A stretch of DNA of 64,000 nucleotides, taken from assembly GCA_025457915.1 (NCBI GenBank), contig JALOTL010000014.1:5156-69155 (forward strand). The letters are read 5' to 3'. Source of the DNA: Spirochaetota bacterium (GTDB lineage Bacteria > Spirochaetota > UBA4802 > UBA5550). Below, one piece after another: positions 1 to 62,254 of the stretch. Numbering within the stretch: position 1 is the first letter of the stretch; each line of letters opens with the position of its first letter. The translations under genes were made by a program, and so were the position numbers. The notes under the pieces are model-generated. The model searched no databases, was not told the origin of the DNA, and worked only from the letters and a program-made list of their open reading frames with translations.

Positions 1-150
1 TGCTCCGGGTCGGATGAAATGGTCTCGGGAAACGTGACCAGCCGCGCCGGGATCGGGTGGTTCATCATGAAGCCGTTTTTCATCGGCGAGCTCGCGAGGG
101 CCGTGCGCGCAGCCCTGGATGAAGATCCCGGGCTGCGGCCTTTCAAATAA
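1..150 (+). CDS. Partial CDS, C-terminal end of a response-regulator receiver domain (5' end lies outside the window)
   Basis: Frame 1 is open from the window start to TAA at 148-150. The translation ends ...FIMKPFFIGELARAVRAALDEDPGLRPFK, a receiver-domain C-terminal KPF motif. Confidence 0.35.
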   Translation, partial: CSGSDEMVSGNVTSRAGIGWFIMKPFFIGELARAVRAALDEDPGLRPFK

Positions 151-12266: not shown

Positions 12267-12499
12267 GTGGATCTCCTTGTTATCCAGCCACTATTATGCA
12301 GCATGCAACGGAAAGAATGCTGACTGAAAACAATTTACCGGAACGGTACGGGACCGTGTCAATAGTAAAATGAAGGGGGGCCGATTGAAGATTGCCGTCA
12401 ATCTTCACCGTGACGCATGCGATCGCGCCGATCGTCGAAATCCGCGGGCCCGCCAGGCATATACCTCCCGGGGCCCGTAACCCGTGCGTGTTTTTCTTT

Positions 12500-13264: not shown

Positions 13265-13324
13265 ACCAACAATCCTTAATCATAAAAAATAGACGCTACA
13301 GGCAGAACGCCGGGCCGGCGGCCG

Positions 13325-13870
13325 CTATTCAGCCGGGAAATATGACGTCCATACAATGGCGTCGAGAACGGCGGTCTGCAAACAGAACGCCGCGCATCCG
13401 ATTACCGCGAGCCGGTGGGCCCAGACGAGCGCGGCCGGCTGAACCGTGATGAGCGCCCCCAGGAGCAGCAGCGACGCAATGCCGGCAATTCCCAACACGA
13501 CGCGGATGCCTGTCCAGGCAATATGCGACGGGTTTGCAATCATATAAAACGTAAGCGGCATCCATAGCGCCGAGGGCACGAGGACCAGGGCATAGAGCCA
13601 TGGAAACAGTCCGTATGAAAAATGACCGGCGATCACGGCCTCGTCGGGGTCCATGCAAAACAGGATAAAATACGTAAAGGCAAGGTATCCCGCCGCCGCG
13701 GTGAACATCGATACGGTGTATACCGGCATAATGGCGCGGGGGACCCCGCCCCAGAGGGCACCGCGCGTTTCAGGGTGATTAATGATGCCGATAGCGTAGC
13801 TGACGAGCACGGCTATGCCGCCTATCAGATTTATCAGCAAAAGGAAGAGCTTATGCGCATGCATGTTCAT
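13325..13870 (-). CDS. Hypothetical integral membrane protein
   Basis: The 181-aa ORF has 5-6 predicted hydrophobic helices. No family was recognised. Confidence 0.5.
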   Translation of the reverse strand: MNMHAHKLFLLLINLIGGIAVLVSYAIGIINHPETRGALWGGVPRAIMPVYTVSMFTAAAGYLAFTYFILFCMDPDEAVIAGHFSYGLFPWLYALVLVPSALWMPLTFYMIANPSHIAWTGIRVVLGIAGIASLLLLGALITVQPAALVWAHRLAVIGCAAFCLQTAVLDAIVWTSYFPAE

Positions 13871-14326
13871 GGTATTTCCCCTGGCCCGGCGCTAAACAAT
13901 CTAAAATTAAAATATTCCTCATGTAAATTAATATACAACAATATTGGCCCGGCGAGTATATATCAAAAAAAAATATTAGCTGTTAAATGGTACCCGAGAC
14001 CGCGGCAGGATAGACGTTTACATCCATAAATTGCTTGATGGGTGTATCGTCCTTGTGAAGATGATTGTCATTAAAACTTCATAACATCAGCAAGGCAGAT
14101 TTGCTTTACTCATCTTTTCCCCCTCTCGGGGCATATATCGCCCCAGTCAGGGGCCGGGTTCATTAAGGGGGGATTTATAACTAAATCCCCCCTTCCACCC
14201 CCCTTAGTTCCGCTCTGCCGCGGCGGCTTGATTTCATCTACCAAATATTATCCGATCGGGGCCTGCGGAACTCAAACAAAGTTGTGAAGACTCGGACAGT
14301 CCTCGGCCAACTTTTATGGACGGCTT

Positions 14327-17300
14327 CGGTTCATCCCCACATGCGTGGGGAATACTTAATCTGGCGAATGGTCTTTATGAATTTATCCGGTTCATCCCCA
14401 CATGCGTGGGGAATACTAGTAATGTAGAAATTTCTGGTTCACCCTTTACGGTTCATCCCCACATGCGTGGGGAATACACGAGATCGCCCTTTTTGATTCG
14501 ATTCCGGCCCGGTTCATCCCCACATGCGTGGGGAATACCGGAATAGCCGCGACAAGCGCGTCGACATAGTCGGTTCATCCCCACATGCGTGGGGAATACG
14601 GCACGCCAATAACAGATGGAATTAACGGAAGCGGTTCATCCCCACATGCGTGGGGAATACGGTCGGTTGATCCGAATTCTGCCGCATTCTGACGGTTCAT
14701 CCCCACATGCGTGGGGAATACCAATAGAAGATATATCATCTATCGTCCATGAACGGTTCATCCCCACATGCGTGGGGAATACGGTCGAACGATAAACGGA
14801 TGCAGAAGATCATCCGGTTCATCCCCACATGCGTGGGGAATACTCCGATGAAGATATCGCAAATTGTATTTATGGCGGTTCATCCCCACATGCGTGGGGA
14901 ATACCGTTATCGCAAGCGCGGCATCGGCAGTTAAGACGGTTCATCCCCACATGCGTGGGGAATACAGTAGACCATTTCCAGTCTTTATAATTAGACCCGG
15001 TTCATCCCCACATGCGTGGGGAATACTTTTATTTCCTCACTTACTATGGCGCAATACCCGGTTCATCCCCACATGCGTGGGGAATACTTTAACAATGGAC
15101 GCAAATAAAATTCTTGATACGGTTCATCCCCACATGCGTGGGGAATACTAGCTTTCCACTCATCCAGCATCCTCGAGTAACGGTTCATCCCCACATGCGT
15201 GGGGAATACATCGGATGCCTCGACCGGCGACGCGGCGGCGGTTCATCCCCACATGCGTGGGGAATACGTTTTCCTGTGTTTTAAACGGATCGTCTGATCC
15301 GGTTCATCCCCACATGCGTGGGGAATACGAAAAACACCGGGGGCGCGTGGACCTGTTCCGCGGTTCATCCCCACATGCGTGGGGAATACAAAAACAGAAA
15401 TGACAGTCCCGGTTGACCCATCGGTTCATCCCCACATGCGTGGGGAATACTTAGCCTTGTCCATAAGCGACGGAGCCGGGGCCGGTTCATCCCCACATGC
15501 GTGGGGAATACTCCATAAAAAATCCTTTTAAAATAATTTAGTCCGGTTCATCCCCACATGCGTGGGGAATACTCGGACCAAACTGAGGGTCCCCAAATTT
15601 TGTGCGGTTCATCCCCACATGCGTGGGGAATACTCCATAAAAAATCCTTTTAAAATAATTTAGTCCGGTTCATCCCCACATGCGTGGGGAATACTAAAAA
15701 ATTGTCGTTTTTCATTTTTTGGCCTCCGGTTCATCCCCACATGCGTGGGGAATACATGAGAAAACACGGTTGTTTAAAATAACATGACGGTTCATCCCCA
15801 CATGCGTGGGGAATACCTGATATGCTCTGACATTATGTTTATATTCTCCGGTTCATCCCCACATGCGTGGGGAATACTTAATCTGGCGAATGGTCTTTAT
15901 GAATTTATCCGGTTCATCCCCACATGCGTGGGGAATACGCTGCTGCCTGTGTATATACAGTCATGTATCCCGGTTCATCCCCACATGCGTGGGGAATACG
16001 AACAATGAAAGAGACTGTAAACTGGAAGGATGCGGTTCATCCCCACATGCGTGGGGAATACGTTGCGGTAATAATAATCATGATAATCAGTTTCGGTTCA
16101 TCCCCACATGCGTGGGGAATACAAACCCCTTCATTCCGGCTTTTTTTACTATCGCGGTTCATCCCCACATGCGTGGGGAATACGTCCTATGGCCGGGGCA
16201 AGACGAAAAATTGAACGGTTCATCCCCACATGCGTGGGGAATACTATAAAAACCTACTGTCCACAATCCCGGCTCACGGTTCATCCCCACATGCGTGGGG
16301 AATACTGCGCCCTCATTCATCGGTTCGCCCTGGTCATCGGTTCATCCCCACATGCGTGGGGAATACCTGGGGAGCCTGCAGAGCGTGGGCGGGTCCCTCG
16401 GTTCATCCCCACATGCGTGGGGAATACAAGCGGTGTCAGCATAACAACGGCGGCGAACACGGTTCATCCCCACATGCGTGGGGAATACTTAATACACCTG
16501 CCTAAAATAGCAGAGTCCACCGGTTCATCCCCACATGCGTGGGGAATACCAACTCTCTCTCTGTTTTGGCATCCTGTATTGCGGTTCATCCCCACATGCG
16601 TGGGGAATACACCATCAGCAGTTGATTTTTTGAGACCATTACCGGTTCATCCCCACATGCGTGGGGAATACTCCCAACATGGTCCGGAGGAGGCGGATTA
16701 TTCCGGTTCATCCCCACATGCGTGGGGAATACTTGCCCGATCCAGTCGTCATGTTGGTTATTGCCGGTTCATCCCCACATGCGTGGGGAATACTTTTTTA
16801 CCTATCACCTGCCCCATTACTCTACCGGTTCATCCCCACATGCGTGGGGAATACAGCGTTACATTTTTTGTCGGGTTCGTTACATTCGGTTCATCCCCAC
16901 ATGCGTGGGGAATACTACTACATGATGGGGAATGCATCAGGGGATTGCGGTTCATCCCCACATGCGTGGGGAATACAGATGAACGAAAAAGAATTGAATC
17001 AGGACAAACGGTTCATCCCCACATGCGTGGGGAATACCCGGGAGCCTTTTCGATGACCGAGACATCCGGCGGTTCATCCCCACATGCGTGGGGAATACGG
17101 GCAATGCCCTGACTAATCTTGAAATCATAGCGGTTCATCCCCACATGCGTGGGGAATACAACATCCTGATTTGATCAAATAGACACTTTTTCGGTTCATC
17201 CCCACATGCGTGGGGAATACTATCACGTTTGACGTCACGGTGATAGTATCGCCGGTTCATCCCCACATGCGTGGGGAATACGAATTTGAACTGACTGGAG

Positions 17301-17830
17301 AAAAAGATTATAACGGTTCATCCCCACATGCGTGGGGAATACTCAGCCTTCCGGATGCGTCATATTCGCCCCCCCGGTTCATCCCCACATGCGTGGGGAA
17401 TACGTTCCCACCGCTATATCGGCAAACAAGCGCGACGGTTCATCCCCACATGCGTGGGGAATACTTCAATTGCAAACCGAGTTCATCGATTCGACGCGGT
17501 TCATCCCCACATGCGTGGGGAATACTGCATCAGCGTCGTTTGAAGTATTCGCGCTTTCGGTTCATCCCCACATGCGTGGGGAATACTCTCAAAGCGTCTA
17601 CATAGTGATTATGTTTATCGGTTCATCCCCACATGCGTGGGGAATACTGCCTTGCCTGCCTCGCCTTGCCTAGCCCCGCCGGTTCATCCCCACATGCGTG
17701 GGGAATACTTAAGTTTCGATTGGTTCGCCGTCCCGCTTTTAGGTTCATCCCCACATGCGTGGGGAATACTTAACCCACGTTTTCAACATCTCGGGGTCAT
17801 CCGGTTCATCCCCACATGCGTGGGGAATAC
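14327..17830 (-). CRISPR. Type I-E CRISPR array of 58 repeats (29 bp) and 57 spacers (mostly 32 bp, 61-bp period), transcribed on the minus strand
   Basis: On the plus strand the repeat reads CGGTTCATCCCCACATGCGTGGGGAATAC. Its reverse complement GTATTCCCCACGCATGTGGGGATGAACCG aligns 21/29 with the E. coli I-E repeat, including the 3' ...GGGGATGAACCG handle, and the plus orientation matches only about 11/29. It contains a 6-7-bp stem (CCCCAC/GTGGGG) with a 4-nt loop. All ORFs called inside this interval (HPHMRGEY, SSPHAWGI, FIPTCVGNT repeats) are artefacts of repeat translation. Confidence 0.97.
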
Positions 17831-17871
17831 TCTAAAACGATGTATAGTAGTTTTCAAGGAACTATGCTGAA

Positions 17872-18174
17872 TTATTCAGCCACATCATTACTCTTTTTCT
17901 TTTTTACCGGTTTACTCAGTAACGAAATTCCGTCAAAATCTATAACGTTTCTATCGGGATCACCATTCACCCTTATACCATACGACTGTTCAGTATTAGT
18001 TGTGAATATCATAATCGCATTCAAGTTCCACTCGGATACGATACGCTCCCACAGCTTATCCTTCACCCGTGCCCCGACATCGGCGACGAAAACGCCGCTT
18101 TTAACCTCAATAGCTAACCGCGACATCTCGCCCCTCTGCGAAGGGGTCGATTTCTCCAACATAATCACTACCAT
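17872..18174 (-). CDS. cas2: Cas2 (type I-E)
   Basis: MVVIMLEKSTPSQRGEMSRLAIEVKSGVFVADVGARVKDKLWERI... aligns with E. coli Cas2 ([47 protein letters not shown]...). Confidence 0.9.
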   Translation of the reverse strand: MVVIMLEKSTPSQRGEMSRLAIEVKSGVFVADVGARVKDKLWERIVSEWNLNAIMIFTTNTEQSYGIRVNGDPDRNVIDFDGISLLSKPVKKKKSNDVAE

Positions 18175-18991
18175 AAATCAAATCCTTCAAATCCGGTATG
18201 ATTCTCTTCATTATCCTTACCTGACGGAATCTATCCCGCAGCGAATATCTTACCCTGCGTTCTACGTCTTCTGCTGATTCTTTGACAATTTCGAAGGCGA
18301 CAGGAATTGTTATATCAGTTTTATACAGGTCGGCTATATCATAAACTAAAGAAAGTTGTTTGCCGGTGTGAACGAACCCGATCGCCGTTGAGAACCCGCA
18401 AGCCAGAATCGCGGCTTGAACCACGCCATATAAACACGCATTAGCTGAAGACAAAGCTCGGTTCAGCGGATCTCCATAATTCCAGTTCTCCTGATCATAA
18501 CTCCGTCCTTTCCAGTCCACACCATGTTCTTCCGATAAATCCTTATACGCCTTGCGCATACGGGCGCCTTCCATCCCTCGTATCTGTTCTATGGAGGCTT
18601 CCTTCTTTATTATTTCATTGAATCTTTTTTGATACATGGCCCTGATGACATTATCGCGCGACACAGGATCGCTGTAAATCTCAACCTGTTTCAATAAATT
18701 CCTCGATGAATATGTCCCAGAATAACCTGATGAATAAAAGCGCACTCCCATCTCGCCCGTCCATGCCACAAGACACCGGCTGTCAGAAATGCGTTTGATG
18801 GCCTCGTGAGTTATCGATGTGCCGGGACCGAGCATAAGCAGACAAAGGGTCTCGATCGGCACCGGTATTACCTTGTCGAGATAATGAAAACCGATAGATT
18901 TTTGATGCTGGTCTATAATGCCTTTCTCAAAATAGAGATAGGACCAGGTATCTTCGAACTTCGGAATTTCCTGAAGGTCGCGGTTGGTCAT
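18107..18991 (-). CDS. cas1: Cas1 (type I-E integrase)
   Basis: The 294-aa product shares ...PVPIETLCLLMLGPGTSITHEAIKRIS...GMEGARMRKAYK...LYGVVQAAILACGFSTAIGFVHTGKQLSLVYDIADLYK... with E. coli Cas1e. It overlaps the cas2 start by 68 nt. Confidence 0.92.
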   Translation of the reverse strand: MTNRDLQEIPKFEDTWSYLYFEKGIIDQHQKSIGFHYLDKVIPVPIETLCLLMLGPGTSITHEAIKRISDSRCLVAWTGEMGVRFYSSGYSGTYSSRNLLKQVEIYSDPVSRDNVIRAMYQKRFNEIIKKEASIEQIRGMEGARMRKAYKDLSEEHGVDWKGRSYDQENWNYGDPLNRALSSANACLYGVVQAAILACGFSTAIGFVHTGKQLSLVYDIADLYKTDITIPVAFEIVKESAEDVERRVRYSLRDRFRQVRIMKRIIPDLKDLIYGSDYVGEIDPFAEGRDVAVSY

Positions 18992-18993
18992 GG

Positions 18994-19671
18994 TTAACCT
19001 TTCTCCGCCTCAATTTTGTTTATTCTATGCGGAACAAATTGTCTTTTTCTGCTATCGAAGCTTATTGCATTGTCCAGCAAAGAATCTATTCCTTGTTTGA
19101 AATCATCGACATCCATTTGCCGTGTGAAACTTGAAATAGATTTTTCTCCAACGAGGGATTTAACTGCATCGGCTTCTGTTTCAAATAATCCCGCACATAC
19201 TGGTGCCGTTGGTATACAGCTTTTTCTGCCGAGCCAGATACCCCATGCAGGGTCCTTTAATGCTTGTGCGGCATTATCAAGTAAGTGTTTATCACCGGAT
19301 AATATCACACCGAATGCGGCATCATTCAGATATTGGCGGTAAGTGATCACGGCATTGGGATTGGAAGCACCGCTGGCTTTGATCGTTCCTTCAACGGTGT
19401 GATAATCAATCAACCTTCGTACTTCAAATACCCGTTTACCTTCAATGCGGGGTATTGAAATCGCAAGCATCTTAAGGGAAAGGAATTTTTCAAGAAAAGC
19501 TTTTTCATCATCCGATCCCCGCGAATAGCCGAGAGCTGCACAACACATGCCAGCAACAGCACTCTTGGTAGGCATGAGACCGGTGTTGCGCCGGTTAAAC
19601 TGGCTGTCGTATCCCCATGACTGCATGGGGCCTTCCAATCGCAAGGCAAGGTATCCGGTCTTATTTGACAT
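18994..19671 (-). CDS. cas5: Cas5e (CasD), Cascade subunit
   Basis: MSNKTGYLALRLEGPMQSWGYDSQF...LIDYHTV...QYLNDAAFGV...WLGRKSC matches the E. coli CasD N-terminus (YLILRLAGPMQAWGQPTFE...LRDYHTV...LGRRSC). Confidence 0.9.
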   Translation of the reverse strand: MSNKTGYLALRLEGPMQSWGYDSQFNRRNTGLMPTKSAVAGMCCAALGYSRGSDDEKAFLEKFLSLKMLAISIPRIEGKRVFEVRRLIDYHTVEGTIKASGASNPNAVITYRQYLNDAAFGVILSGDKHLLDNAAQALKDPAWGIWLGRKSCIPTAPVCAGLFETEADAVKSLVGEKSISSFTRQMDVDDFKQGIDSLLDNAISFDSRKRQFVPHRINKIEAEKG

Positions 19672-20695
19672 ATTTATCCACCTTCTTTAATAATTCATCA
19701 AGAGTAATATCAGGTATGGATTCACAGAGGGACTCATTCAGCCCCCATGTTTTTTTGTTATTATCATATTCGTTGTTTAACGCCTCCTTGGATAATTCAA
19801 AAATGCTTTTCCCATCCTTAGGACGTATCGGTTTTTCAAAAGCATTTACAAGCTGTATTGGATGACCTTCATCACGAACAACGCATTTTACATATCCTGG
19901 AAGCGTATTCCCATTCATCGAATTTCTTCGCGCAGAAGGCATTGCCATGAGAGTGGATTTTATAAAAGTTTTTACTACTTCTTTGCGTTCATTCAATGCA
20001 ACGGCTTCAAGATGGGATTCATCTGCAAGCATATCAAGGTTAAGGGCTGAAAATCTGTAATAGGTGGCTGAATTATATTCCAGTGTGCCCATCATACCAG
20101 CACCTACTTCTTCATTCTTTTGTCTGTCATCAACAGCAGTAAAAAAATCAATCTCGTTATCGGCTTTATGAGTTGAAATAGCATGAGAAAACATTGCTGC
20201 TCCTTCTATTTTAAGATCTGGAGCATCAGCCACCATTCTACCGAATAAACATAAATCCGCAGCATCCTTCAGTAAATCTTTTGATCCACCAGCTTTAATC
20301 GCCTTTTTCACATCTTTAGTAGCTGCATACTCCTTGGCCATTGACTCCAATTCCCTTTGTGTAGTAAAAAACATGGTCTTCACGCGGGTTTCTGTATCGA
20401 CTTTGTTCATCGCACCAGCAATGACTTTTGCACCCTCAATCGAATCATTCTTGTTTAGGCCTGCCTTTTGTAGTTGTTCAGTTAATGGTTCAATTATTAG
20501 TTTAGTTCTCTCCCCCCTAAACCCCTGAGGATATAATTCCTTGGCCATATCTCTTATCGCTCTCTTCCAGCACTGGCTGGACACTCGTGCCCGTTGTACA
20601 CCACCAAAAATCGCGGTCTTGGGCGAATTAAGATCATCGCGATTTAAACAGGAAACCGGTACTGATTGCAGAATATGTAATTCAAGATGTTTCAT
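19661..20695 (-). CDS. cas7: Cas7e (CasC), Cascade backbone subunit
   Basis: MKHLELHILQSVPVSCLNRDDLNSPKTAIFGGVQRARVSSQCWKRAIR... matches the conserved Cas7e N-terminus (…HILQ..P.SNLNRDD.G.PKTA..GGV.RARVSS..WKRA.R). Confidence 0.9.
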   Translation of the reverse strand: MKHLELHILQSVPVSCLNRDDLNSPKTAIFGGVQRARVSSQCWKRAIRDMAKELYPQGFRGERTKLIIEPLTEQLQKAGLNKNDSIEGAKVIAGAMNKVDTETRVKTMFFTTQRELESMAKEYAATKDVKKAIKAGGSKDLLKDAADLCLFGRMVADAPDLKIEGAAMFSHAISTHKADNEIDFFTAVDDRQKNEEVGAGMMGTLEYNSATYYRFSALNLDMLADESHLEAVALNERKEVVKTFIKSTLMAMPSARRNSMNGNTLPGYVKCVVRDEGHPIQLVNAFEKPIRPKDGKSIFELSKEALNNEYDNNKKTWGLNESLCESIPDITLDELLKKVDKYVK

Positions 20696-20706
20696 TGTGT
20701 TACTCC

Positions 20707-21348
20707 TTATTGTAATTTTAACGGTTGTATGACCATCATGCCGAACCCGAAGCCCTTGGCGCTGCCTATACCCATCATAAATGCCTTTTTAAAGGCTTCT
20801 CGATCTATAACTTCGAGGACTCCCTGAAATCTGATGCCTACGTGAAGCCCAGGGTCACTTTTAATCTGATTTTTTATAAACCGATAATTTTGCGCAGGCT
20901 CAATAAAAAGCGGGGGATCATCCAAAACTGAAAAGCCACTCTCTTGTGCCTTTCTGTTAAACCAGTTGATCTGATCTTCCAATATTGTAAGCGCTTTTCT
21001 CATTCCATTTTTAGTACGTTTACCCTTATCATCTGTTTTGGGAATCTTTTTCGTTGGATTTGCTTTTATATCGAAACGATAAAAATTATGATCAAGAAAA
21101 TCATTTTTTAATTCCCTTACCGCCCAACAATCTTCAGGACACCATTCGGGACGCATAGGCTCTTGTAATGCCAGAATAAAAAGCCGAAAACCTCTCTCAA
21201 CCGTATCGACCCTGAACAGAAAATCCCTAGTTTTATCAGGCTCACCGGGAAATGCCTTCCATGCGGCTTTATGCCATGCATAAACGTCAAAAAGCCTGTA
21301 ACGTGCCGCGGTTTTACAGTCTATTACAGCTTTACTCAGGTATTTCAT
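20707..21348 (-). CDS. cas6e: Cas6e (CasE), crRNA endoribonuclease; located upstream of cas7e/cas5e (non-canonical order)
   Basis: From the internal Met the product reads MKYLSKAVIDCKTAARYRLFDVYAWHKAAWKAFPGEPDKTRDFLFRVD..., aligning to E. coli CasE (MYLSKVII...LYQLHQGLWHLFPNRPDAARDFLFHVE). It has a Gly-rich C-terminal loop (GSAKGFGFG). The ORF extends to 21408 but the start at 21348 is preferred. Confidence 0.88.
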   Translation of the reverse strand: MKYLSKAVIDCKTAARYRLFDVYAWHKAAWKAFPGEPDKTRDFLFRVDTVERGFRLFILALQEPMRPEWCPEDCWAVRELKNDFLDHNFYRFDIKANPTKKIPKTDDKGKRTKNGMRKALTILEDQINWFNRKAQESGFSVLDDPPLFIEPAQNYRFIKNQIKSDPGLHVGIRFQGVLEVIDREAFKKAFMMGIGSAKGFGFGMMVIQPLKLQ

Positions 21349-21835
21349 CGACCACCTCCGCCCCAGACGCCCAGAAGGAAGTCGCCCAACGGGTTTTAAC
21401 ATTATCACCCCAATAGATCAGATCACTTTCCAGTAGGACGTAATTAACCGGTAATCCTTCCGCTTTTGCTCTCAGTACAATCCTTTTCACCCGTTCGCAA
21501 ATCTCATCTCGATTTGAGGCAATAAGGTATTGCAATCGCTTGGCCATTGTGCCAGGTTTAGAGTCAACTTTTCTTAATTCATTCCTTTCATCATCGCTGC
21601 ATAATTGAAAACACAATGAACCGATATTTCCTTTTAAAGTAGGCTCTGGATGGCTTGCGAATAATCCAGCAACGGTTTGTTTTACCCGAGCCTCATGTTC
21701 ATCTCCTATTCCGCCAAAATAGCCAAGATGCGGATATGCCCGAAAACGTTTGCTTTCAACCAGTGCGCATCGAAGATCGGCCATTAAACCCCGGTCATCC
21801 TTTTTCTTAACCAAATAATCAAGTAAAGCGCTCAT
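21332..21835 (-). CDS. cse2: Cse2 (CasB), Cascade small subunit
   Basis: The 167-aa alpha-helical protein sits between cse1 and cas6e. The motif ...DRGLMADLRCAL... is typical of Cse2. Confidence 0.75.
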   Translation of the reverse strand: MSALLDYLVKKKDDRGLMADLRCALVESKRFRAYPHLGYFGGIGDEHEARVKQTVAGLFASHPEPTLKGNIGSLCFQLCSDDERNELRKVDSKPGTMAKRLQYLIASNRDEICERVKRIVLRAKAEGLPVNYVLLESDLIYWGDNVKTRWATSFWASGAEVVDEIPE

Positions 21836-23469
21836 AGGTTTTCCTCCTCTTGATTTGTTTTTACCTGAATCGAATTAGTATCTTGTTCTTTTTTATTTAA
21901 AACCCTCCAGCCAAGCACAAAGGCCCTTATCTGACGCGGGGTTTCTCTGCCGCATACAAGCTTATACGATTCACGGGCTGCAGCAAAAAGTGTTTTCTGC
22001 CAAACTTTACGTGTTGCTTCGACTTTTTCAGCTGATGTACCTATTGCTTCAATATACAACATCAACAGCGGAAGTGATTTTTCGATAGTAGTCCAGTAGT
22101 GGGTGGTGGCTTTGGAATGTATTTGTACACGCAATAAATAAGATGAGCTGCTGCTCTTCAATCTCCCCTCCCAACCACCATCAAAAGCTTTTCTATATTC
22201 TTCTATCGCCCAGCCTAACTTCTTCGATATTATTTCTGCGAACTGGACTTCATTTTCATAAGCTGCTCGTCCTGCATTACTAAACATTTTTTCATTCACA
22301 TGATATACACTATCTACCATATCAATAATTGAAGCTTGGTCTCGTGCTAAAGCGAGTATATGAAAATCAACGGATTCATTCTGATCAATATTCATCAGGC
22401 ATAGTGGGCCTCCTGCTTGTTGTGCTTTTCTTTTAACAACCATAGATGGAAGCTCTCGCCACGTTGCCGTTTCAGGATTGAATCTTAACAACGAAAAAAT
22501 TTGTTTTTTTGTGTTTCTTGACAAAATTACGGTTGCAGTAACTTCTGGCGGGAAAGGTATTTTTGAATTAAATGATCGATACATTAATCCTTCACCAATG
22601 ATCATGCAATCACATGATGGAAGAATTCTTATAAGACGACTTAGCGGCACCAATCTTCCTAGATACGTCTCTGTGGCATTATTGATGAAATCTACATCTG
22701 ACCGTTTTGATGGAAATTTTTCCCATATTGGGTTGCCCCAATAGTTTTCTCCCAGTGGTGAGTAATGCATTCGTAGTTCTTTTTTTGTTATTAGATTCTT
22801 ATTAATCGTCTTAGCGATATTTGAAGATCTGATGAAACAATGATACATACTGCCTGGTGAACAGGGACCATCCGATGGATTTGGAGGTTTTTTTTCTGGT
22901 GGAATACCGCCCCATATTACTGCTGCTGTTTTACCACCTGCAAGGAAAAAATTCTGAAATGATAAAAGTTGCACAGCAATTTCAGAAGGGCTGAACTCCC
23001 GGAGAATTTGAGATGATGCTTCATGATCGAATAAGGTCGGATTGACACCTGATGCTAGCGTATGATCTAGTTTGCTTAATGATATCTGTCCGCCCTCATC
23101 ATCATTGTCTTGGTTTTTATCCATTTGTGACTTTGTTAAATTTGCTATCTGCAAAAAAGGCTTCTTGGGATGAAACAAATCGAAGGAATCACGCCATTTA
23201 TCCAGATAGTTTCGTGCAGCTCCGGGAAGTATTTCTTTCGCATTGAGCCAATCATCGTAATCTTCTGGCCCATCAAGCGAGGCATGTGCAATGCAGAGCA
23301 ATAAACGCATGAGAGATACTCGCTCGTGCGGTCTGACTGCAAGATCAGCATAATTTTCACCATCGGCAAAAACATCCATCAAGCCGATCAATCTATATTC
23401 ACCTTTCAAATTAGTGACAGGTATCCACTTTTCATCGACAAGATTGAATCCCTTATTCTGACGATTCAT
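21832..23469 (-). CDS. cse1: Cse1 (CasA / Cas8e), Cascade large subunit
   Basis: From the internal Met the product reads MNRQNKGFNLVDEKWIPVTNLKG..., matching the Cse1 N-terminus (MNLLIDNWIPVR...). It is about 545 aa. The ORF as called extends to 23487 and overlaps cas3. Confidence 0.85.
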   Translation of the reverse strand: MNRQNKGFNLVDEKWIPVTNLKGEYRLIGLMDVFADGENYADLAVRPHERVSLMRLLLCIAHASLDGPEDYDDWLNAKEILPGAARNYLDKWRDSFDLFHPKKPFLQIANLTKSQMDKNQDNDDEGGQISLSKLDHTLASGVNPTLFDHEASSQILREFSPSEIAVQLLSFQNFFLAGGKTAAVIWGGIPPEKKPPNPSDGPCSPGSMYHCFIRSSNIAKTINKNLITKKELRMHYSPLGENYWGNPIWEKFPSKRSDVDFINNATETYLGRLVPLSRLIRILPSCDCMIIGEGLMYRSFNSKIPFPPEVTATVILSRNTKKQIFSLLRFNPETATWRELPSMVVKRKAQQAGGPLCLMNIDQNESVDFHILALARDQASIIDMVDSVYHVNEKMFSNAGRAAYENEVQFAEIISKKLGWAIEEYRKAFDGGWEGRLKSSSSSYLLRVQIHSKATTHYWTTIEKSLPLLMLYIEAIGTSAEKVEATRKVWQKTLFAAARESYKLVCGRETPRQIRAFVLGWRVLNKKEQDTNSIQVKTNQEEENL

Positions 23470-26020
23470 CAGACACCCCCTGGGCACGTATTATTTCCAA
23501 ACCTTTATCAATAGTCCATTTAAGTCTTATTCCTTTTTTCAAATTAGCGACATCGAGAAAGCCTCCATCACCAGGCACTGATAAAATCACACAGCCTGAA
23601 ACATATTTCGGAAGATAAGCTAAAGATATTTTTTTTTCGAAAACCCATGCGGGCACTTTAACAAGATTTTTTTGAATCGCTTTTCCAGTATCCTTGCTTT
23701 TCTTCCCGGTTTTTTCTTCTTTTCGGGGTATTTGAGAACCGTTTAATAGAATAATAAAATTATCTAATCGCTCTCTGGCAAGTATTATGGACACCGTCGA
23801 CTGGGTATTATAGCGAGTCATTACTTCTTCTTCATCGTCAAGTGATGGCATTTTTAAAATCGCTGTGGCAATTAGAGCTTTCTGCATGAGACCGTTCTTT
23901 TTTTCATGCAAGTCAGCTTTAAGCTCTTTCCATGATTCTGATGGTTCAACATTTTCGGAATAAGTATATTCTATAATTGAACGGATATCAAAGGGAATTA
24001 AGATGGTTTTGGTGTCACGCTTTTTCCACTCCATATAGGTTCGAAGCAAAACATAAGGATCGTATACATATGCTTTATTTCCTAATGCTTTACGAATTTC
24101 GCTCGATGTCATTTCAATGGATTGCTGAATATTAAAACTCTCCTTAAGAATCCAGAGTTCCGGCTTTTCAATTGGCCGTAAATGCCGATTGTGTCTCCAC
24201 AATCTCCCGATACGTTGGAGAAGCATATCAGTCGGTGCAAGTTCGGTTATAATCAAGTCGGCATCGATATCCACGCTCTGTTCTACAACCTGAGTAGCTA
24301 CCAGAATACATGAACCGCGCCCATTCCCATTTTTTCCAAGTTTTTCTAGCCATTTTTGCTCAATCTCCTCTCTTCTAAAAAACGGAAATCGAGAATGTAA
24401 AAGGCCGATCTCGACTGATCCTCGGTTTTCTTTATGTTTAAAAGAGTCGTATATTTCCTGTGAACGGGCAATAGTATCGCATATCCAAACTATCGAAGCT
24501 CCATTTTGCGCTTTTCCCCATGCATTAGAAATTGCTTTATTTTCATCAATAAAGCGTATGGCTATTTCTTTATTTTCTGGAGAATCAAGCGTAACGTCTG
24601 GTAGTATTTGTCCATCTGCGGTTTTTCCGCTGAGAAGAGGGTACCCGTTTGAGGAAGTCTTTTCATCATTATCAATGTCAAGCAATTCTATTCGCCGCGT
24701 TGCAGTAAGCGTGGCAGAGAGTATAATTACTGTGGCGCCAAGTTGTACGAGAGATCGACATAAATTATTTATGAGTGTTCCAGTATATATATCATAGGAA
24801 TGCACTTCATCAAGAATCACCACTTTGCCAGCCAGCGCAAACAGGCGAACAAAGAAATGCTTAACAGCTATAACACCCATGAGCGCCTGGTCTACAGTTC
24901 CTACACCAAATGGTGAAAGCAATGCGCGTTTTGGAGATGAAAACCAATCATATGCTGAGTCTCTTTCTTGGCTATCTCCATCAGGGTTGTTATTAATCTC
25001 CGGGATTTCAATTTTGTCATCTAATAACCAAGAGTTGCCGTGTATTAATTGTATAGATAGTGTTTTTTCGCAGATTCTATTGATAAAATCGACAACCCTT
25101 AGATGGATACGATTACTTGTAGTTTGGGTGGGGAGCGCAAAATAAATACCCGAAGCCTTTCCACTATTACAAAGCTGATAAGCAACGGAAAGTGCGGCTT
25201 CTGTTTTCCCTATACCCATAGGTGCTTCAATGACATAAATACCAGGCTCTTTTATAAATGCATTAACTGCAGTCTGTAGAGCATTTGCCTCGAATTCGAA
25301 GTAATCATAGAAATGCTTGCCGTTAATAATTGAAGGACGCACAAAACCAATATTATATAATGCTTCTTGGGTCCGTATTCTCGATTCTTCTGGGGGGATA
25401 TTACTCCCGGCAGGAAAAAACCGCTCATCGGACCCGATCCAATCGGACACCGTTGTCAAACCTGCAACAAACCAAAGGAGTGGATTGTCCGGTTTAACCG
25501 GGGAACTAATCAATTTGCCGTTGTTTTCAATAAAACTCTTTGCTACTTGACGACGCTTTTCTTCCCAGTAATCGTCACTCATTCCGAATCCCGGCAATAA
25601 TCCTCTCTCTCCATTATAGGTTATCCGACCGTGATGAGCGCCGATGGCCGCAGCCCAAAGCGTTGATGACATGCGGTCAAGTCCTGTATCCATTAATAAG
25701 TGCTCAATAGTATATTGGCTTACTTGAGAATGATTATATGGTGAGTTATCCCATCCATTTCGAATATCTTCCTTTTCCAAATTATACTTATGAAGCCACC
25801 CATGGCATTTCCTTTGAAATTGTGGAGAGATTTTACCTAAATCATGAAGGCCCGAGAGTATGGAAATATCAGTATTGGTAATATCAATACTGATTCTGGG
25901 ATAAAATATCGAAAAAATGCATTTTGCTACTGATGCAACATTTTGCATGTGGTGGTAAACATCTATCCCTGGGTTTTTATCTTCTGTTGTTTTTGCCCAA
26001 AATTCAATGTTATTCTGCAT
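23453..26020 (-). CDS. cas3: Cas3, HD nuclease fused to a superfamily-2 DEAH helicase
   Basis: The N-terminal HD domain has ...VYHHMQNVASV...LHDLGKISPQFQ.... The helicase has Walker A (APMGIGKTEAAL), a DEVH box (VILDEVHSYD) and motif VI (QRIGRLWR). The product is 855 aa. Confidence 0.93.
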   Translation of the reverse strand: MQNNIEFWAKTTEDKNPGIDVYHHMQNVASVAKCIFSIFYPRISIDITNTDISILSGLHDLGKISPQFQRKCHGWLHKYNLEKEDIRNGWDNSPYNHSQVSQYTIEHLLMDTGLDRMSSTLWAAAIGAHHGRITYNGERGLLPGFGMSDDYWEEKRRQVAKSFIENNGKLISSPVKPDNPLLWFVAGLTTVSDWIGSDERFFPAGSNIPPEESRIRTQEALYNIGFVRPSIINGKHFYDYFEFEANALQTAVNAFIKEPGIYVIEAPMGIGKTEAALSVAYQLCNSGKASGIYFALPTQTTSNRIHLRVVDFINRICEKTLSIQLIHGNSWLLDDKIEIPEINNNPDGDSQERDSAYDWFSSPKRALLSPFGVGTVDQALMGVIAVKHFFVRLFALAGKVVILDEVHSYDIYTGTLINNLCRSLVQLGATVIILSATLTATRRIELLDIDNDEKTSSNGYPLLSGKTADGQILPDVTLDSPENKEIAIRFIDENKAISNAWGKAQNGASIVWICDTIARSQEIYDSFKHKENRGSVEIGLLHSRFPFFRREEIEQKWLEKLGKNGNGRGSCILVATQVVEQSVDIDADLIITELAPTDMLLQRIGRLWRHNRHLRPIEKPELWILKESFNIQQSIEMTSSEIRKALGNKAYVYDPYVLLRTYMEWKKRDTKTILIPFDIRSIIEYTYSENVEPSESWKELKADLHEKKNGLMQKALIATAILKMPSLDDEEEVMTRYNTQSTVSIILARERLDNFIILLNGSQIPRKEEKTGKKSKDTGKAIQKNLVKVPAWVFEKKISLAYLPKYVSGCVILSVPGDGGFLDVANLKKGIRLKWTIDKGLEIIRAQGVSDESSE

Positions 26021-26290
26021 TATTTATAAAACCAATATCTAATATTAATAATTGCTTAATAATTATTTTCATCTCCCCGTCTTTACAACATACAATCTCC
26101 TCCCTGACAGAAAGTGACATATACATCCGTTTGGCACCCAAAAAGAGTTGAAACTTTTTAAAATATATATAATAATATTATTATATGCAAACTGTTTTTT
26201 ATAGTTTTAACTTTTCATTTTGAAGTAATTTAATTATGCGTTAAAAAACATCTTTGATCTTAGTATTAATATTTTTTAGGAGCTATTCCA
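26021..26290. promoter_or_regulatory. AT-rich divergent promoter region between cas3 and the WYL regulator gene, containing a 20-bp perfect palindrome
   Basis: The 270-bp intergenic region is very AT-rich. A perfect palindrome ATATAATAATATTATTATAT lies at 26167-26186. The RBS AGGAGCTATTCC precedes the WYL gene ATG at 26291. Confidence 0.5.
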
Positions 26291-27262
26291 ATGAAATATG
26301 GCAAACCTCTCCTCTCAAGGATACAATTTATTGATGCCCGTATCCGTGATGGTAAATATCCCAATTCACGTAAACTTGCAGAAGAGTATGAGGTTAGTGA
26401 ACGAACTATTCACCGTGATATTGATTATATGAGGGACATGCTTGGTTGCCCAATAGAATATAATAAAAATAAACGTGGCTATTATTACGCAGAGCCCTTC
26501 TTTTCACTCCCTTCCGTACAAATAACCGAAAAAGAACTATTTGCATTTTGTGTAGCAGAAAAAGCATTAGAAGAATACCGTGCTACCCCTCTATATGACA
26601 CTTTAGCTAAAGTCTATAAAAAACTTACCGAAAATTTAACAGATGAAATTACAGCCAATTTTTCATGGTTAAATCCTGATATATCATTCATTCAACAAAG
26701 CACAACAATAATCACACCTTCAATCTGGGAAACAATATCTACTGCACTTTATACTCATTCTGTTTTAGATGCCAGTCATCGTAAAGCCGGCGCCACCAAA
26801 TCAACTAAACGCTTGATAGAGCCATATCATATGGCAATCTATGAAGGAGAATGGTATTTAATAGGCTACTGTAGATTAAAAAAAGAAACATTAATATTCG
26901 CAATATCACGATTTGAAAGTGTGAAACGTTTAAACGAAACATTTGTAAAACCAGAAACATTTAACATTAATGAATATTTAGGTTCTCATTTCGGTATAAC
27001 AAGAGAAAATGAGAATTATCAGGTCAAAGTGAAATTCAACTCCACAGCTGCACCTTATATCTTGGAACGTAATTGGTCTTGCGACCAAACAATAGATAAA
27101 AATAAAGATGGAAGTATTATTTTAACTTTTAAATCAAATTCTATCAAAGAAGTAAAGCGCTGGGTCTTAAGTTGGGGTTCAACAGTTGAGGTTATTTCCC
27201 CAAATGAGTTAGTACTGGATATTTATAATGAATTAAAATTGATGATAGAAAATTACAAATAA
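26291..27262 (+). CDS. HTH-WYL-domain transcriptional regulator (DeoR-type HTH N-terminus, central WYL domain, C-terminal WCX-like extension)
   Basis: The N-terminus carries the HTH ...YPNSRKLAEEYEVSERTIHRDIDYM.... The WYL motif reads ...RLIEPYHMAIYEGEWYLIGYCRLKKETLIFAISRF.... The gene is divergent from cas3. Confidence 0.8.
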   Translation: MKYGKPLLSRIQFIDARIRDGKYPNSRKLAEEYEVSERTIHRDIDYMRDMLGCPIEYNKNKRGYYYAEPFFSLPSVQITEKELFAFCVAEKALEEYRATPLYDTLAKVYKKLTENLTDEITANFSWLNPDISFIQQSTTIITPSIWETISTALYTHSVLDASHRKAGATKSTKRLIEPYHMAIYEGEWYLIGYCRLKKETLIFAISRFESVKRLNETFVKPETFNINEYLGSHFGITRENENYQVKVKFNSTAAPYILERNWSCDQTIDKNKDGSIILTFKSNSIKEVKRWVLSWGSTVEVISPNELVLDIYNELKLMIENYK

Positions 27263-27604
27263 ATTGTTTTTTAACGAATGGCATCACCTTTTTATTATAA
27301 ATTTTTTTCGTTCCTTGATTCAAATTCCCGTCTCATAATTCATCTCTTCCTCCTTTCTTCCTCCTATGTTGCTCCTATCTAGCTCCTATGTTGCTCCAGT
27401 ATATTTTTTTTTAATTTTTAAAGAAGATCTCTACGTTTCAATAATTGGTAAAAATTTTAAAAAATTTCCTCAAAAATTTTCATAAACCCCTCCCCTGCTC
27501 GTCAATTTATTAAAAGCACATAAGGAGGTATGGCATGTAGAACAAAAAATTCGTAATCAATCTCAAAAGTTCAAAAATTATTTAAAGCCATAGGAGGTAT
27601 AATC

Positions 27605-28228
27605 ATGGCAAAAGTAGATTTAAATCCCGTCTTCGAGGGATTCAGTAAAAAAATCGGAGAACTCGTTTTTTACACGAAAGGTGGCATGGCCTTCGTAAGA
27701 AGGCTGGGGTCATTTAAAAATCCCAACAGCCCGAAACAGCTTGAAGTGAGAAACCGTTTCATGCAGGCAACCGGTCTCTGGAAAACAGTCGGCGGCATCA
27801 TGCACCGCGGCTGGTACGAATACGCAAAAAAGAAAAGGCTTTACGGTTACCCGGCCTTTATAGGTGAAAACACTAAAAGGTTTGCTAACCAACTTGCGCC
27901 GGACCTCTTCAAGGAACACGGTGAGGCCCCTCTTTCATCTTTCACCTGCGAACCTTCTGCGTCATCAGGTGAAATTATGTGTTCATTCACAAATCCATCT
28001 TCAAATGCTGAAAAACATGTTACTCTCTTCGCACATGAAAAGTTAAATGGTCAGCCTATTGTTGAGGTCAGAAGAATCGATCTTGGTCTCTCTCCTGCAT
28101 CGCCACATGCAGTGTCTGGTTTTGAACCCGGAAAAACTTATACCATTCATGCGGTTGTAACAGACAGGATGTATCCTGAAGCGGAATCATCTTCAGCGTC
28201 TCTTTCGCACGAATCATTGGTTAACTGA
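27605..28228 (+). CDS. Hypothetical 207-aa protein of unknown function at the edge of the cas island
   Basis: The ATG at 27605 has a strong RBS (AGGAGGTATAATC). No family was recognised. The gene is followed by a bidirectional hairpin terminator. Confidence 0.5.
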   Translation: MAKVDLNPVFEGFSKKIGELVFYTKGGMAFVRRLGSFKNPNSPKQLEVRNRFMQATGLWKTVGGIMHRGWYEYAKKKRLYGYPAFIGENTKRFANQLAPDLFKEHGEAPLSSFTCEPSASSGEIMCSFTNPSSNAEKHVTLFAHEKLNGQPIVEVRRIDLGLSPASPHAVSGFEPGKTYTIHAVVTDRMYPEAESSSASLSHESLVN

Positions 28229-28595
28229 GACTTTAATTTTACAACAGAGTTAAAGATGAAAGGGCCCCGTGCTAGCCGGGGCCCTTCTTATGTTTAGCGA
28301 CGGTATTCGCCTGACGGTCGCCTGAAAAAAAATATTTTATCATAAAAAACTTCACCGGCCATCCGGGCCAGGGCAGCGTGATATCCGATGTAGATGACAA
28401 TGAGCGGGAGCACACCGAAAACTTCTGACGCGCACGGATGCGACAGGCAGGAAGCCTTAGTGCTGCCGATGCCAAGCTGACGACCGGAGGGAAGGAAGTC
28501 CTGTAAGGAGACGGCAAGGAGGCAGCCCCCTGATGCCGACGCCGACAGGATGTCGAAAAGGCGTCGGCCGTTAATAATCTCTTCCTGAGGGAATT

Positions 28596-28640
28596 CCTAA
28601 AAAGCAAACAAAAAAGCCGTTCCATCGGAGCGGCTTTTTT
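28596..28640. terminator. Bidirectional Rho-independent terminator between convergent genes
   Basis: CAAAAAAGCCGTTCCATCGGAGCGGCTTTTTTT forms a GC-rich stem (AGCCGTTCC/GGAGCGGCT) flanked by an A-run and a T-run. Confidence 0.7.
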
Positions 28641-28663
28641 TATTAAATATACCGATACGCGGA

Positions 28664-29332
28664 TTATTCGATGGATTCAACCGTACCGCCGATTCTATAG
28701 TCCACGCTGTCGGCTTTAAATTTCACTTTTACCTTGTCGTTTGGTTTCAGCTTGTCTGCTTTCGATGCCAGGTTATCGGCATAGGCCAGTGTAACCTGCT
28801 TCGAGTATGGGTCGTCGCTATGGCAATCCATGATTTTTTTGCCCCCCTCCGTCCTTTTACCGGTGAAGACGACGGTTAAGGCAAAAGATTTACCAAGGGA
28901 CTCTTTACCGTCGAGAATAATGGAGCAGGCGGAAACGGCCGGATCTTTAAGAGTGCCGCTTACGGGCTTCCCGTCGAGACCGGCGACTTCGATGAGCTCG
29001 CCGCTGAGCGTGCTGTATTTGTCGTTTTTCGTTATCTTGAATTTATAGATGAATTTCTGGCCGTACGTCAGATTCAGGATTTTATTTTTCATGGTCTTGG
29101 GAACATAAACAAAAATTGTCGCGGTATTGCCGGTGCCGAATAACCGGACGTAAGGACCGGTGTCGTCGCTTTCAATGTTAACCTGCTGGAGCGTCAGGGT
29201 ATAGGTTTTCCCCATGGAATCCTTGGCGGCGATTATCGGATCAAGGCTTTCCCCTTCCGATTTTAGGTTGGATGAACAGGCTGTGACTGTGAACAATAAA
29301 CCCGCAAAAAGAAGCAATAAATACTTTCTCAT
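28664..29332 (-). CDS. Hypothetical lipoprotein
   Basis: A signal peptide with lipobox (LLFTVTAC|S) is present. The 222-aa product matches no recognised family. Confidence 0.6.
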   Translation of the reverse strand: MRKYLLLLFAGLLFTVTACSSNLKSEGESLDPIIAAKDSMGKTYTLTLQQVNIESDDTGPYVRLFGTGNTATIFVYVPKTMKNKILNLTYGQKFIYKFKITKNDKYSTLSGELIEVAGLDGKPVSGTLKDPAVSACSIILDGKESLGKSFALTVVFTGKRTEGGKKIMDCHSDDPYSKQVTLAYADNLASKADKLKPNDKVKVKFKADSVDYRIGGTVESIE

Positions 29333-29701
29333 ATAAATCTCCTTCTTTGAATATTAGTTTGTGTCTGGCTGCATGATGCATTAAACATATAAAGCGCACA
29401 ATCCGATTTTTTCAATACAAATATTTTCGGCTCTCTCCTGAATACCGGGAAAATACGATAGAAAGAAAAAAAATTCAAGCGGCTTTAACTGCGCGTGAGA
29501 CTTATCGCCGGGGATCAGGAACCGATAATGAGCGGCATCTCGCCCGGAAAGCGGTTTTATTAAATACTTTTTCACGGTTTGAATGATTTTTTCCGTTGCC
29601 GGCATCCCCCCGGCGCGGAGAGTTGTCCCCGATACGCTGTATTCATACGAAGATGAAGAAGAGAACCGGCCCGGATGCTTCTCCGTTTCCTACGTCATTT
29701 T

Positions 29702-37267: not shown

Positions 37268-37276
37268 AATAAAAAC

Positions 37277-62242: not shown

Positions 62243-62254
62243 GGCCGTATTCCG

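Follow-up and report, generated by a model that had tools for sequence, protein, structure and literature searches.

The window, by which we mean the whole 64,000-nucleotide stretch of DNA analysed, very probably carries a complete, functional-looking CRISPR-Cas system of type I-E in the cas6e-first arrangement seen in Vibrio cholerae O395. This phage-defence locus is real but ordinary, and its cas6e-first order is the published norm for a large I-E branch. Eight cas genes lie on the minus strand between 26020 and 17872, in the order cas3-cse1-cse2-cas6e-cas7e-cas5e-cas1-cas2, and an array follows them (17830 to 14327). Read from left to right, the window therefore presents the array first and then cas2 through cas3. 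The host is uncultured and probably related to spirochaetes; it comes from JGI metagenome 3300037461, and five spacers match phages of that same metagenome.

Gene content of the locus

The I-E subunits were judged by subtype-specific NCBIfam profile cut-offs, with the PADLOC best match as a second assignment (Table 1). The initial annotation had listed all eight I-E genes as present and apparently intact, and the profiles agree. The I-E cut-offs are passed (by Cas3 through the core and HD models), and the best PADLOC assignments are Cas3e, Cas8e, Cas11e, Cas6e, Cas7e, Cas5e, Cas1e and Cas2e. No gene is reassigned to another subtype, all eight ORFs are intact, and the sequence contains 0 frameshifts. 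The profile search thus recovered the type I-E signature subunits Cse1/Cas8e and Cse2/Cas11e, and the backbone and endoribonuclease set of Cas7e, Cas5e and Cas6e is above cut-off throughout. Cas3 is a single chain in which an HD nuclease at the N terminus is fused to an SF2 helicase, and Cas1e and Cas2e form the adaptation module.

Alignment of Cas3 with a solved Cas3 structure (PDB 4Q2C) places the HD, GAHHG, Walker A (PMGIGKT), DEVH and motif VI elements. The E. coli-specific full-length Cas3 model NF007248 scores 361 where its cut-off is 569; this shortfall is a matter of divergence of Cas3, not of its absence. In Cas6e the catalytic His corresponds to H20 in the alignment to E. coli CasE. 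The cas1 product hits E. coli Cas1 (PDB 3NKD) at E 2.8e-65 and aligns collinearly with its best structure match, 6KDV, over residues 3-286. The closest homologue of Cas7e among 5.8 billion proteins has 74% identity.

For two genes the longest ORF, used earlier as the gene model, probably begins too far upstream. The longest ORF of cas6e starts at 21408, but the profile alignment, like each of two independent gene calls, begins at 21348. For cse1 the gene calls give 23469 in place of 23487.

Table 1. Features of the CRISPR-Cas locus and its surroundings, in window coordinates.
Feature	Coordinates	Strand	Evidence
CRISPR array, 58 repeats of 29 nt and 57 spacers	14327..17830	-	61-nt period
Spacer 3 (old)	14478..14509	-	30/32 in phage baseplate gene, AAG PAM; same phage contig as spacer 56
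Spacers 50 (17343-17374) and 52 (17465-17496)	17343..17496	-	each 32/32, AAG PAM; IMGVR_UViG_3300037461_000610
Spacer 56 with variant last base of preceding repeat	17709..17741	-	31/32, phage tail gene; IMGVR_UViG_3300037461_000560
Spacer 57 (newest)	17770..17801	-	32/32 in phage terminase-large gene, AAG PAM; IMGVR_UViG_3300037461_000715
Leader-proximal intergenic stretch, 41 nt	17831..17871	-	cas2 stop codon to first repeat
cas2 (Cas2e), 100 aa	17872..18174	-	TIGR01873 57 bits vs cut-off 33; PADLOC Cas2e 142 bits
cas1 (Cas1e), 294 aa	18107..18991	-	TIGR03638 349 bits vs cut-off 216
cas5e (CasD), 225 aa	18994..19671	-	TIGR01868 133 bits vs cut-off 69; PADLOC Cas5e
cas7e (CasC/Cse4), 344 aa	19661..20695	-	TIGR01869 262 bits vs cut-off 178
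cas6e (CasE/Cse3), 213 aa	20707..21348	-	TIGR01907 129 bits vs cut-off 45
cse2 (Cas11e/CasB), 167 aa	21332..21835	-	TIGR02548 46 bits vs cut-off 28.5; PADLOC Cas11e 58 bits
cse1 (Cas8e/CasA), 545 aa	21832..23469	-	TIGR02547 127 bits vs cut-off 70; PADLOC Cas8e 223 bits
cas3 (HD nuclease and SF2 helicase fused), 855 aa	23453..26020	-	cas3_core and cas3_HD models pass; PADLOC Cas3e 545 bits
HTH-WYL-WCX transcription regulator	26291..27262	+	Pfam HTH_11, WYL, WCX; PADLOC CRISPR-associated WYL model 132 bits
ORF207, 207 aa, without family assignment	27605..28228	+	low GC like cas block

Order of the cas genes

The gene order reported earlier is borne out by the order of the ORFs, including the cas6e-first stretch cse2-cas6e-cas7e-cas5e-cas1. 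It had been singled out as noteworthy, and it does differ from E. coli K-12 and from Thermus (the latter by annotation), where cse2 adjoins cas7e. A recent local rearrangement that produced a structurally novel I-E variant would fit that difference. We rejected this reading and give it practically no chance, because the related loci uniformly carry cas6e-cas7-cas5. Of the related species-representative loci, 78 reach across the cas6e-cas7-cas5 junction, and all 78 have this order. They come from many phyla; examples are Desulfovibrio piger ATCC 29098, Geobacter argillaceus and Pelotalea chapellei. The order has been published as a known variant I-E arrangement in V. cholerae O395/Man9 (PMC9893581), and in Klebsiella it is the majority form, with 39 cas6e-first strains against 18 of the E. 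coli type (PMC8847753). A V. campbellii plasmid has the same order in its PGAP annotation.

CRISPR array and spacer targets

The repeat, in the transcribed sense, is GTATTCCCCACGCATGTGGGGATGAACCG. It is palindromic and ends in the I-E form ...GGGGAT(G/A)AACCG, and its 58 copies (0 expected by chance) are identical apart from one PAM-derived base. Fifty-five spacers are 32 nt long, one is 29 and one is 33. We assign the array to the minus strand because the I-E-type 5' handle AUGAACCG and an AAG PAM 5' of the protospacers are both obtained in that sense. The most recent spacer occupies the array end at 17.8 kb. The gap between cas2 and the array is in the normal range, since the distance in relatives is usually about 40-120 nt (extremes 18 and 713), and a functional leader probably reaches into the 3' end of cas2.

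The five matching spacers, which include both of the newest, hit three phage contigs of the window's own metagenome (3300037461). These contigs encode terminase, portal, sheath and baseplate genes and have a GC content of 42-47%. AAG occupies positions -3 to -1 in four of the five protospacers and -4 to -2 in the fifth. The repeat before spacer 56 ends in T, not G, and the flank in the phage is AAG-T. This flank and the T taken up as the last repeat base indicate that the acquisition of spacer 56 slipped by +1. The targets of spacers 50 and 52 lie in one phage portal gene, on the same strand and 199 bp apart, a pairing that looks like priming. The spacer matches, the AAG PAMs and the transfer of the slipped base to the repeat provide strong evidence for recent canonical I-E adaptation. 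The suggestion in the initial annotation that the system is active gains support from these matches to co-occurring phages.

The locus could instead be an inactive relic that inherited its array and has lost adaptation or interference. Spacer 3 has mismatches to its target at seed positions 4 and 7, the duplicated spacers (1=26, 20=22) could stem from recombination and not from acquisition, and the function of the locus is itself predicted from sequence. We nevertheless regard a relic as distinctly unlikely: every ORF and all checked catalytic motifs are intact, the repeats have stayed uniform, and the two newest and two further leader-near spacers have perfect or near-perfect matches, each with the right PAM, in phages from this very sample.

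Predicted mechanism

A working scheme can be taken over from homology to E. coli I-E. The operon and the array downstream of it would be transcribed from the minus strand, probably under the control of the divergent WYL regulator described below. Cas6e is predicted to cleave 3' of each repeat hairpin, yielding 61-nt crRNAs that begin with the 5' handle. Cse1, Cse2, Cas7e, Cas5e and Cas6e may form a Cascade that targets AAG-flanked protospacers, and the HD nuclease and helicase of Cas3 would destroy the target. At the array end nearest cas2, Cas1-Cas2 would add further 33-bp units, with the protospacer flank supplying the last repeat base on insertion.

Regulator and upstream region

The WYL gene is upstream of cas3 and divergent from it. 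Its product is a probable regulator of the cas operon, and 14 of 80 relatives have a WYL homologue upstream of cas3. ORF207 has no match in Pfam, NCBIfam, PADLOC or PHROGs and was not found in the related loci; that it is part of the I-E system is doubtful. A terminator-like hairpin is present at 28260-28286, and sigma-70-like promoter matches are no more frequent than chance. Low GC is common to the cas block, the WYL gene and ORF207. The latter two could be read as an undescribed sensing or accessory module on the I-E system, in which ORF207 might, for instance, act as effector or modulator under joint control with cas3. We think such a module very unlikely.

Composition and origin of the locus

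The GC content of the cas block is 0.413 and that of the 26.0-28.2 kb stretch is 0.351, so windowed GC upholds the low GC that the initial annotation saw across 17.9-28.2 kb. The surroundings had been given as 60-68% GC on either side, within a high-GC chromosome. This was overstated: GC is 0.58-0.63 in the flank on the left but just 0.47-0.53 in the one on the right, and the window is a mosaic that averages 0.499. The contrast is less clean than first described because of that right flank and of further low-GC patches in the window (7-9, 35-38, 47-48 and 53-57 kb). At third codon positions the block does deviate from neighbouring genes, with GC3 of 0.32-0.52 in the cas genes and 0.24-0.52 in the whole block against 0.59-0.88 in genes outside it.

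Synteny with the nearest relatives ends at about 13971 and about 29698. Relatives that have the flank genes at 79-88% amino-acid identity carry no cas genes beside them, and no contig joins both flanks. The hallmarks of mobility were not found: no tRNA turned up, the block borders share no k-mer of 13 nt or more and thus no flanking direct repeats, and integrase and transposase genes are absent among the scanned flank ORFs, several of which have no family match. Horizontal acquisition of the block at about 14.0-28.3 kb (array, cas genes, WYL gene and ORF207) is likely. The earlier proposal of such a transfer has the foreign GC3 and the two synteny breaks in its favour and gets no help from a tRNA, an integrase, flanking repeats or an empty site.

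Low GC could also arise without transfer, if the host genome is a mosaic and the cas block is one of its long-resident AT-rich regions. The other low-GC patches, the modest GC of the right flank and the missing mobility genes, tRNA and att repeats would suit this explanation, which we hold to be unlikely. Long residence should have ameliorated the GC3 of the cas genes, yet nearly all flank genes have a far higher GC3. In relatives, cas GC normally tracks the flank (median difference -0.02), which makes a fall of 18 points relative to the left flank atypical. The relatives that share the flank genes without adjacent cas genes also speak against it, as do the named Cas7 relatives, which are scattered across many phyla at about 60% identity. 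An assembly chimera, in which higher-GC flanks were spliced to a low-GC CRISPR-cas segment of a different organism, is highly improbable. The window does come from a metagenome assembly, in GC the matching phages resemble the cas block more than they do the left flank (58-63%), and the sole independent assembly, a Logan contig that covers the WYL gene to cas1 only, spans neither junction of the block. A chimera would, however, take two independent misjoins in one 91-kb contig. The two flanks are alike in GC3 and in gene content, with SpoIIE phosphatases and signalling proteins on each side, and there is no misjoin-prone repeat at the right border. A phage GC a few points under that of a host at about 50% is normal.

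Comparison with known systems

The I-E locus of V. cholerae O395/Man9 (classical biotype) has the identical order from cas3 to cas2, followed by the array, and its spacers are also aimed at phages of the host (PMC9893581). It differs in host lineage and in its repeat, reported as 28-bp (PMC9893581) against 29 nt here. The WYL regulator adjoining cas3 sets the present locus apart from it. At the protein level the Vibrio comparison was made through V. campbellii and not through a V. cholerae protein; Cas7e has 39% identity to the Cas7e of the V. campbellii plasmid. Box and colleagues reportedly demonstrated function of the V. cholerae system by experiment in 2016, whereas function at the present locus is deduced from homology.

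With E. coli K-12 the locus shares the eight protein families, the position of the array downstream of cas2, the AAG PAM, a 29-nt hairpin repeat and 32-nt spacers. In E. coli the last repeat base is drawn from the protospacer flank, and the same behaviour is observed here at spacer 56. Unlike the present locus, E. coli K-12 has cas6e after cas5e. Its cas genes are regulated by H-NS and LeuO, where the present locus has an adjacent WYL regulator. The divergence from E. coli is large, and the E. coli-type full-length NCBIfam models of both Cas3 and Cse1 stay under cut-off.

I-E loci of Desulfovibrionaceae, Geobacteraceae and environmental MAGs have the same order, the same repeat family and a short gap between cas2 and the array. 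The repeat of D. piger ATCC 29098, GTATTCCCCACGCACGTGGGGATGAACCG, is one base off the present repeat. The Cas proteins of these loci have just 43-51% mean identity to those described here. In most of these relatives cas GC is near flank GC, whereas at the present locus it is 9-18 points lower.

Gene content and order of the cas operon

The locus is a complete CRISPR-Cas system of type I-E that is likely active and was likely acquired. Start positions of the cas genes come from an ORF scan, refined by profile matches and gene calls. Adjacent genes abut or overlap by a few bases, a spacing like that in a translationally coupled operon. Cse1, Cse2, Cas6e, Cas7e, Cas5e, Cas1e, and Cas2e each score above the curated cut-off of an I-E-specific NCBIfam model, and Cas3 is above cut-off for the NCBIfam models of its core and HD domain. 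Independently, the best PADLOC matches are Cas3e, Cas8e, Cas11e, Cas6e, Cas7e, Cas5e, Cas1e, and Cas2e. With eight intact ORFs and I-E models matched in both collections, the system is complete, as the initial annotation had claimed, and the Cas profile searches revealed neither another subtype nor a hidden frameshift.

Cas1 matches solved I-E Cas1 structures, including that of E. coli, and aligns over its whole length with the best match. A search of solved structures aligned a Cas6e histidine with His20 of E. coli CasE, and the HD motif, GAHHG, Walker A, DEVH, and motif VI of Cas3 all align with a solved Cas3. The Cas7e of the locus shares 74% identity with its closest counterpart in public data. 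Neither Rfam nor a tRNA scan gave any match in the window. Promoter-like matches were no commoner than in shuffled sequence, and we therefore claim no promoter.

Coordinates and composition of features in the window
Feature	Position	Strand	GC	GC3	Remark
cas block			0.413	0.32-0.52	
cas3	26020..23453	minus			intact ORF
cse1	23469..21832	minus			intact ORF
cse2	21835..21332	minus			intact ORF
cas6e	21348..20707	minus			intact ORF
cas7e	20695..19661	minus			intact ORF
cas5e	19671..18994	minus			intact ORF
cas1	18991..18107	minus			intact ORF
cas2	18174..17872	minus			intact ORF
Repeat cores of the array	14328-17830	minus			58 copies
WYL gene	26291-27262	plus	0.333	0.24	HTH_11-WYL-WCX protein
Tandem repeat	27345-27397				between WYL gene and ORF207
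ORF207	27605-28228	plus		0.42	207 amino acids
Terminator-like hairpin	28260-28286				downstream of ORF207
Second AT-rich patch	35798-38314		0.30-0.37		
Signalling genes	2610-4601, 7934-9286, 54723-56237, 29702-31648				four proteins
MoxR-type ATPase and next gene	60581-63757				

The gene order cas3-cse1-cse2-cas6e-cas7e-cas5e-cas1-cas2 is confirmed. It differs from that of E. coli, in which cas6e comes after cas5e, and is identical to that of V. cholerae O395 and Man9, where it is treated as a variant I-E arrangement (PMC9893581). Among Klebsiella, the cas6e-first order is found in 39 strains and the E. coli-type order in 18 (PMC8847753). The PGAP annotation of a V. campbellii plasmid gives casA, a gap, and then cas6e-cas7e-cas5e.

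A scan of GTDB, with one genome per species and by alignment of Cas7e relatives, gave 80 loci in which the eight proteins were placed by tblastn. These loci are from Desulfobacterota, Fibrobacterota, Planctomycetota, Verrucomicrobiota, Nitrospirota, Omnitrophota, Spirochaetota, and others. All loci that span the junction (78/80) have cas6e-cas7-cas5, and the E. coli order occurs in none of the 78. Cultured strains with cas6e-cas7-cas5 include Desulfovibrio piger ATCC 29098, Geobacter argillaceus, and Pelotalea chapellei. The order first noted as non-canonical is real but not unusual, being alike in every spanning locus and published in Vibrio and Klebsiella; a very large I-E clade has it as its standard arrangement.

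The CRISPR array

The 28-nt repeat core recurs with a period of 61 nt (none expected in shuffled sequence). The full repeat is 29 nt, including the preceding base, and reads GTATTCCCCACGCATGTGGGGATGAACCG in the transcribed sense. Of the 57 spacers, 55 are 32 nt long, while one has 29 nt and another 33 nt; they are numbered here from 1 to 57 (newest, at the leader end). Array and cas operon both lie on the minus strand, with the cas genes directly upstream of the array in the sense of transcription. The crRNAs would be 61 nt long, with a 5′ start of AUGAACCG and the repeat hairpin as 3′ end, which would reflect processing by Cas6e.

The cas2 stop codon and the first repeat are 41 nt apart. We rejected this distance as an abnormality, since those of relatives are mostly about 40-120 nt. 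Two pairs of spacers are identical, 1 and 26 (14356-14387 and 15878-15909) and 20 and 22 (15512-15543 and 15634-15665). Spacers 7 and 9 appear to be variants of a single protospacer site; spacer 9 also matches the baseplate gene of L164, a phage contig, with 8 mismatches. With up to 7 mismatches allowed, no self-targeting spacer was found within the window.

Spacer matches to phages of the same metagenome

Comparison of the array with cultured phages and plasmids gave no protospacers; the only matches were periodic ones of its repeats to those of other I-E arrays. The window sequence is part of contig Ga0392394_0000090 (91 kb) of JGI metagenome 3300037461. Eight spacers were tried against IMG/VR; four had no match and four matched, all in contigs of this same metagenome. 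The matches of spacers 50 and 3 were found by local matching in L167 and L164.

Spacer matches in IMG/VR phage contigs L163, L164, and L167 (IMGVR_UViG_3300037461_000715, _000560, and _000610)
Spacer	Protospacer	Identity	5′ flank	Remark
57	L163 terminase large subunit	32/32	AAG	nearest leader
56	tail gene of L164 (myovirus-like contig)	31/32	AAG-T	mismatch at position 18
52	L167 portal gene	32/32	AAG	
50	L167 portal gene	32/32	AAG	local matching
3	L164 baseplate gene	30/32	AAG	old spacer; mismatches at seed positions 4 and 7; local matching

AAG is directly adjacent in four of the five protospacers, far beyond the 1-in-64 expectation, and chance would not be expected to produce a specified pattern of 27 bases in the collection. 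The phage matches with their PAM also settle the direction of transcription and which end is the leader end, and they show canonical AAG-dependent adaptation. Activity, suggested earlier from the long array and full adaptation module, is likely given five spacers that match phage contigs of the same metagenome, four with an adjacent AAG.

The repeat base before spacer 56 (position 17741) is T, not G, in the transcribed sense, the sole variant among the 58 repeats, and T is the base flanking the spacer 56 protospacer in L164. In the E. coli I-E system the protospacer flank supplies the final base of the repeat. If that applies here, the T would be the record of a +1 slipped acquisition. The protospacers of spacers 50 and 52 are on the same strand and 199 bp apart, a pattern typical of primed adaptation, and adaptation was probably primed. 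Spacer 3 is old, and its mismatches are consistent with escape of the phage from it.

The phage contigs carry a lambda-like head module (L163), a myovirus-like tail module (L164), and TerL/portal genes (L167), and predicted targeting by the array assigns a host to these fragments. The locus, from an uncultured, probably spirochaete-like lineage, adds one intact I-E system with the common cas6e-first arrangement and has little significance beyond cataloguing. Its main value is a clean natural host-phage link within one sample, from the window contig to three phage contigs, which could aid their host assignment or studies of CRISPR dynamics there.

Composition and possible acquisition

Regional GC and GC3 confirm the AT-rich cas block. 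Left-flank genes have a GC of 0.58-0.63 (GC3 0.71-0.85) and right-flank genes only 0.47-0.53 (GC3 0.59-0.71), so the 60-68% initially given for either side was overstated. The description of a high-GC chromosome also went too far, as the whole window has a GC of 0.499, with further low-GC patches at 7-9, 35-38, 47-48, and 53-57 kb.

The nearest relative of the right flank, contig L082, is collinear from 34045 down to 29698 at about 80% nucleotide identity and then diverges. Relatives of the left flank (L085, L086, and L088) have only 12468-13971 in common. The cas genes are absent beside the shared flank genes in all four contigs, and no relative joins both flanks. A search of these four for an empty site found only the genes adjoining the block shared, followed by divergence, with no junction seen. 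In 55 related loci with enough upstream sequence, the median difference between cas and flank GC is -0.02. The cas GC is more than 10 points below the flank in 6 of the 55, and low-GC cas islands therefore recur, as a minority. Horizontal acquisition, which the initial annotation had proposed, is the most likely reading and quite a probable one. Its composition argument stands, as the block appears foreign, but there is no tRNA in the window, no mobility gene among flank ORFs with a family match, no direct or inverted repeat of at least 13 nt between the block borders, and no empty site found.

The second strongly AT-rich patch carries the genes for an O-acyltransferase of the MBOAT family and for a neighbouring protein without a family match, and it may be another acquired cassette.

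The WYL gene and adjoining DNA

The WYL gene is divergent from cas3, and its product matches the PADLOC model for CRISPR-associated WYL proteins. Of the 80 relatives, 14 have a WYL homologue just upstream of cas3, which makes a role in regulation a reasonable prediction. Searches of Pfam, NCBIfam, PADLOC, and PHROGs gave no match for ORF207, and none of the 80 related I-E loci has a homologue of it. Its GC3 is like that of the cas block, and the hairpin downstream is strong. The tandem repeat has an 11-nt unit, TCTTCCTCCTA, in about 4.8 copies; L001, an independent Logan contig that extends from the WYL gene to cas1, ends near it.

Host and other genes of the window

Most named homologues of the 7TMR-DISM cyclase in the flank come from Leptospira and other Spirochaetota (35-41% identity), and genes for SpoIIE phosphatases and for chemotaxis or signalling abound in the window. 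Together these are a weak pointer to a spirochaete-like host. The density of signalling proteins is unusual, with three SpoIIE/PP2C-type phosphatases (one with dCache and HAMP sensor domains) and one 7TMR-DISM adenylate cyclase. The window also encodes a MoxR-type AAA ATPase with a bpMoxR domain, and the protein encoded next has no more than a weak match to VWA, below the threshold; these genes may be part of a MoxR-vWA-beta-propeller ternary system.
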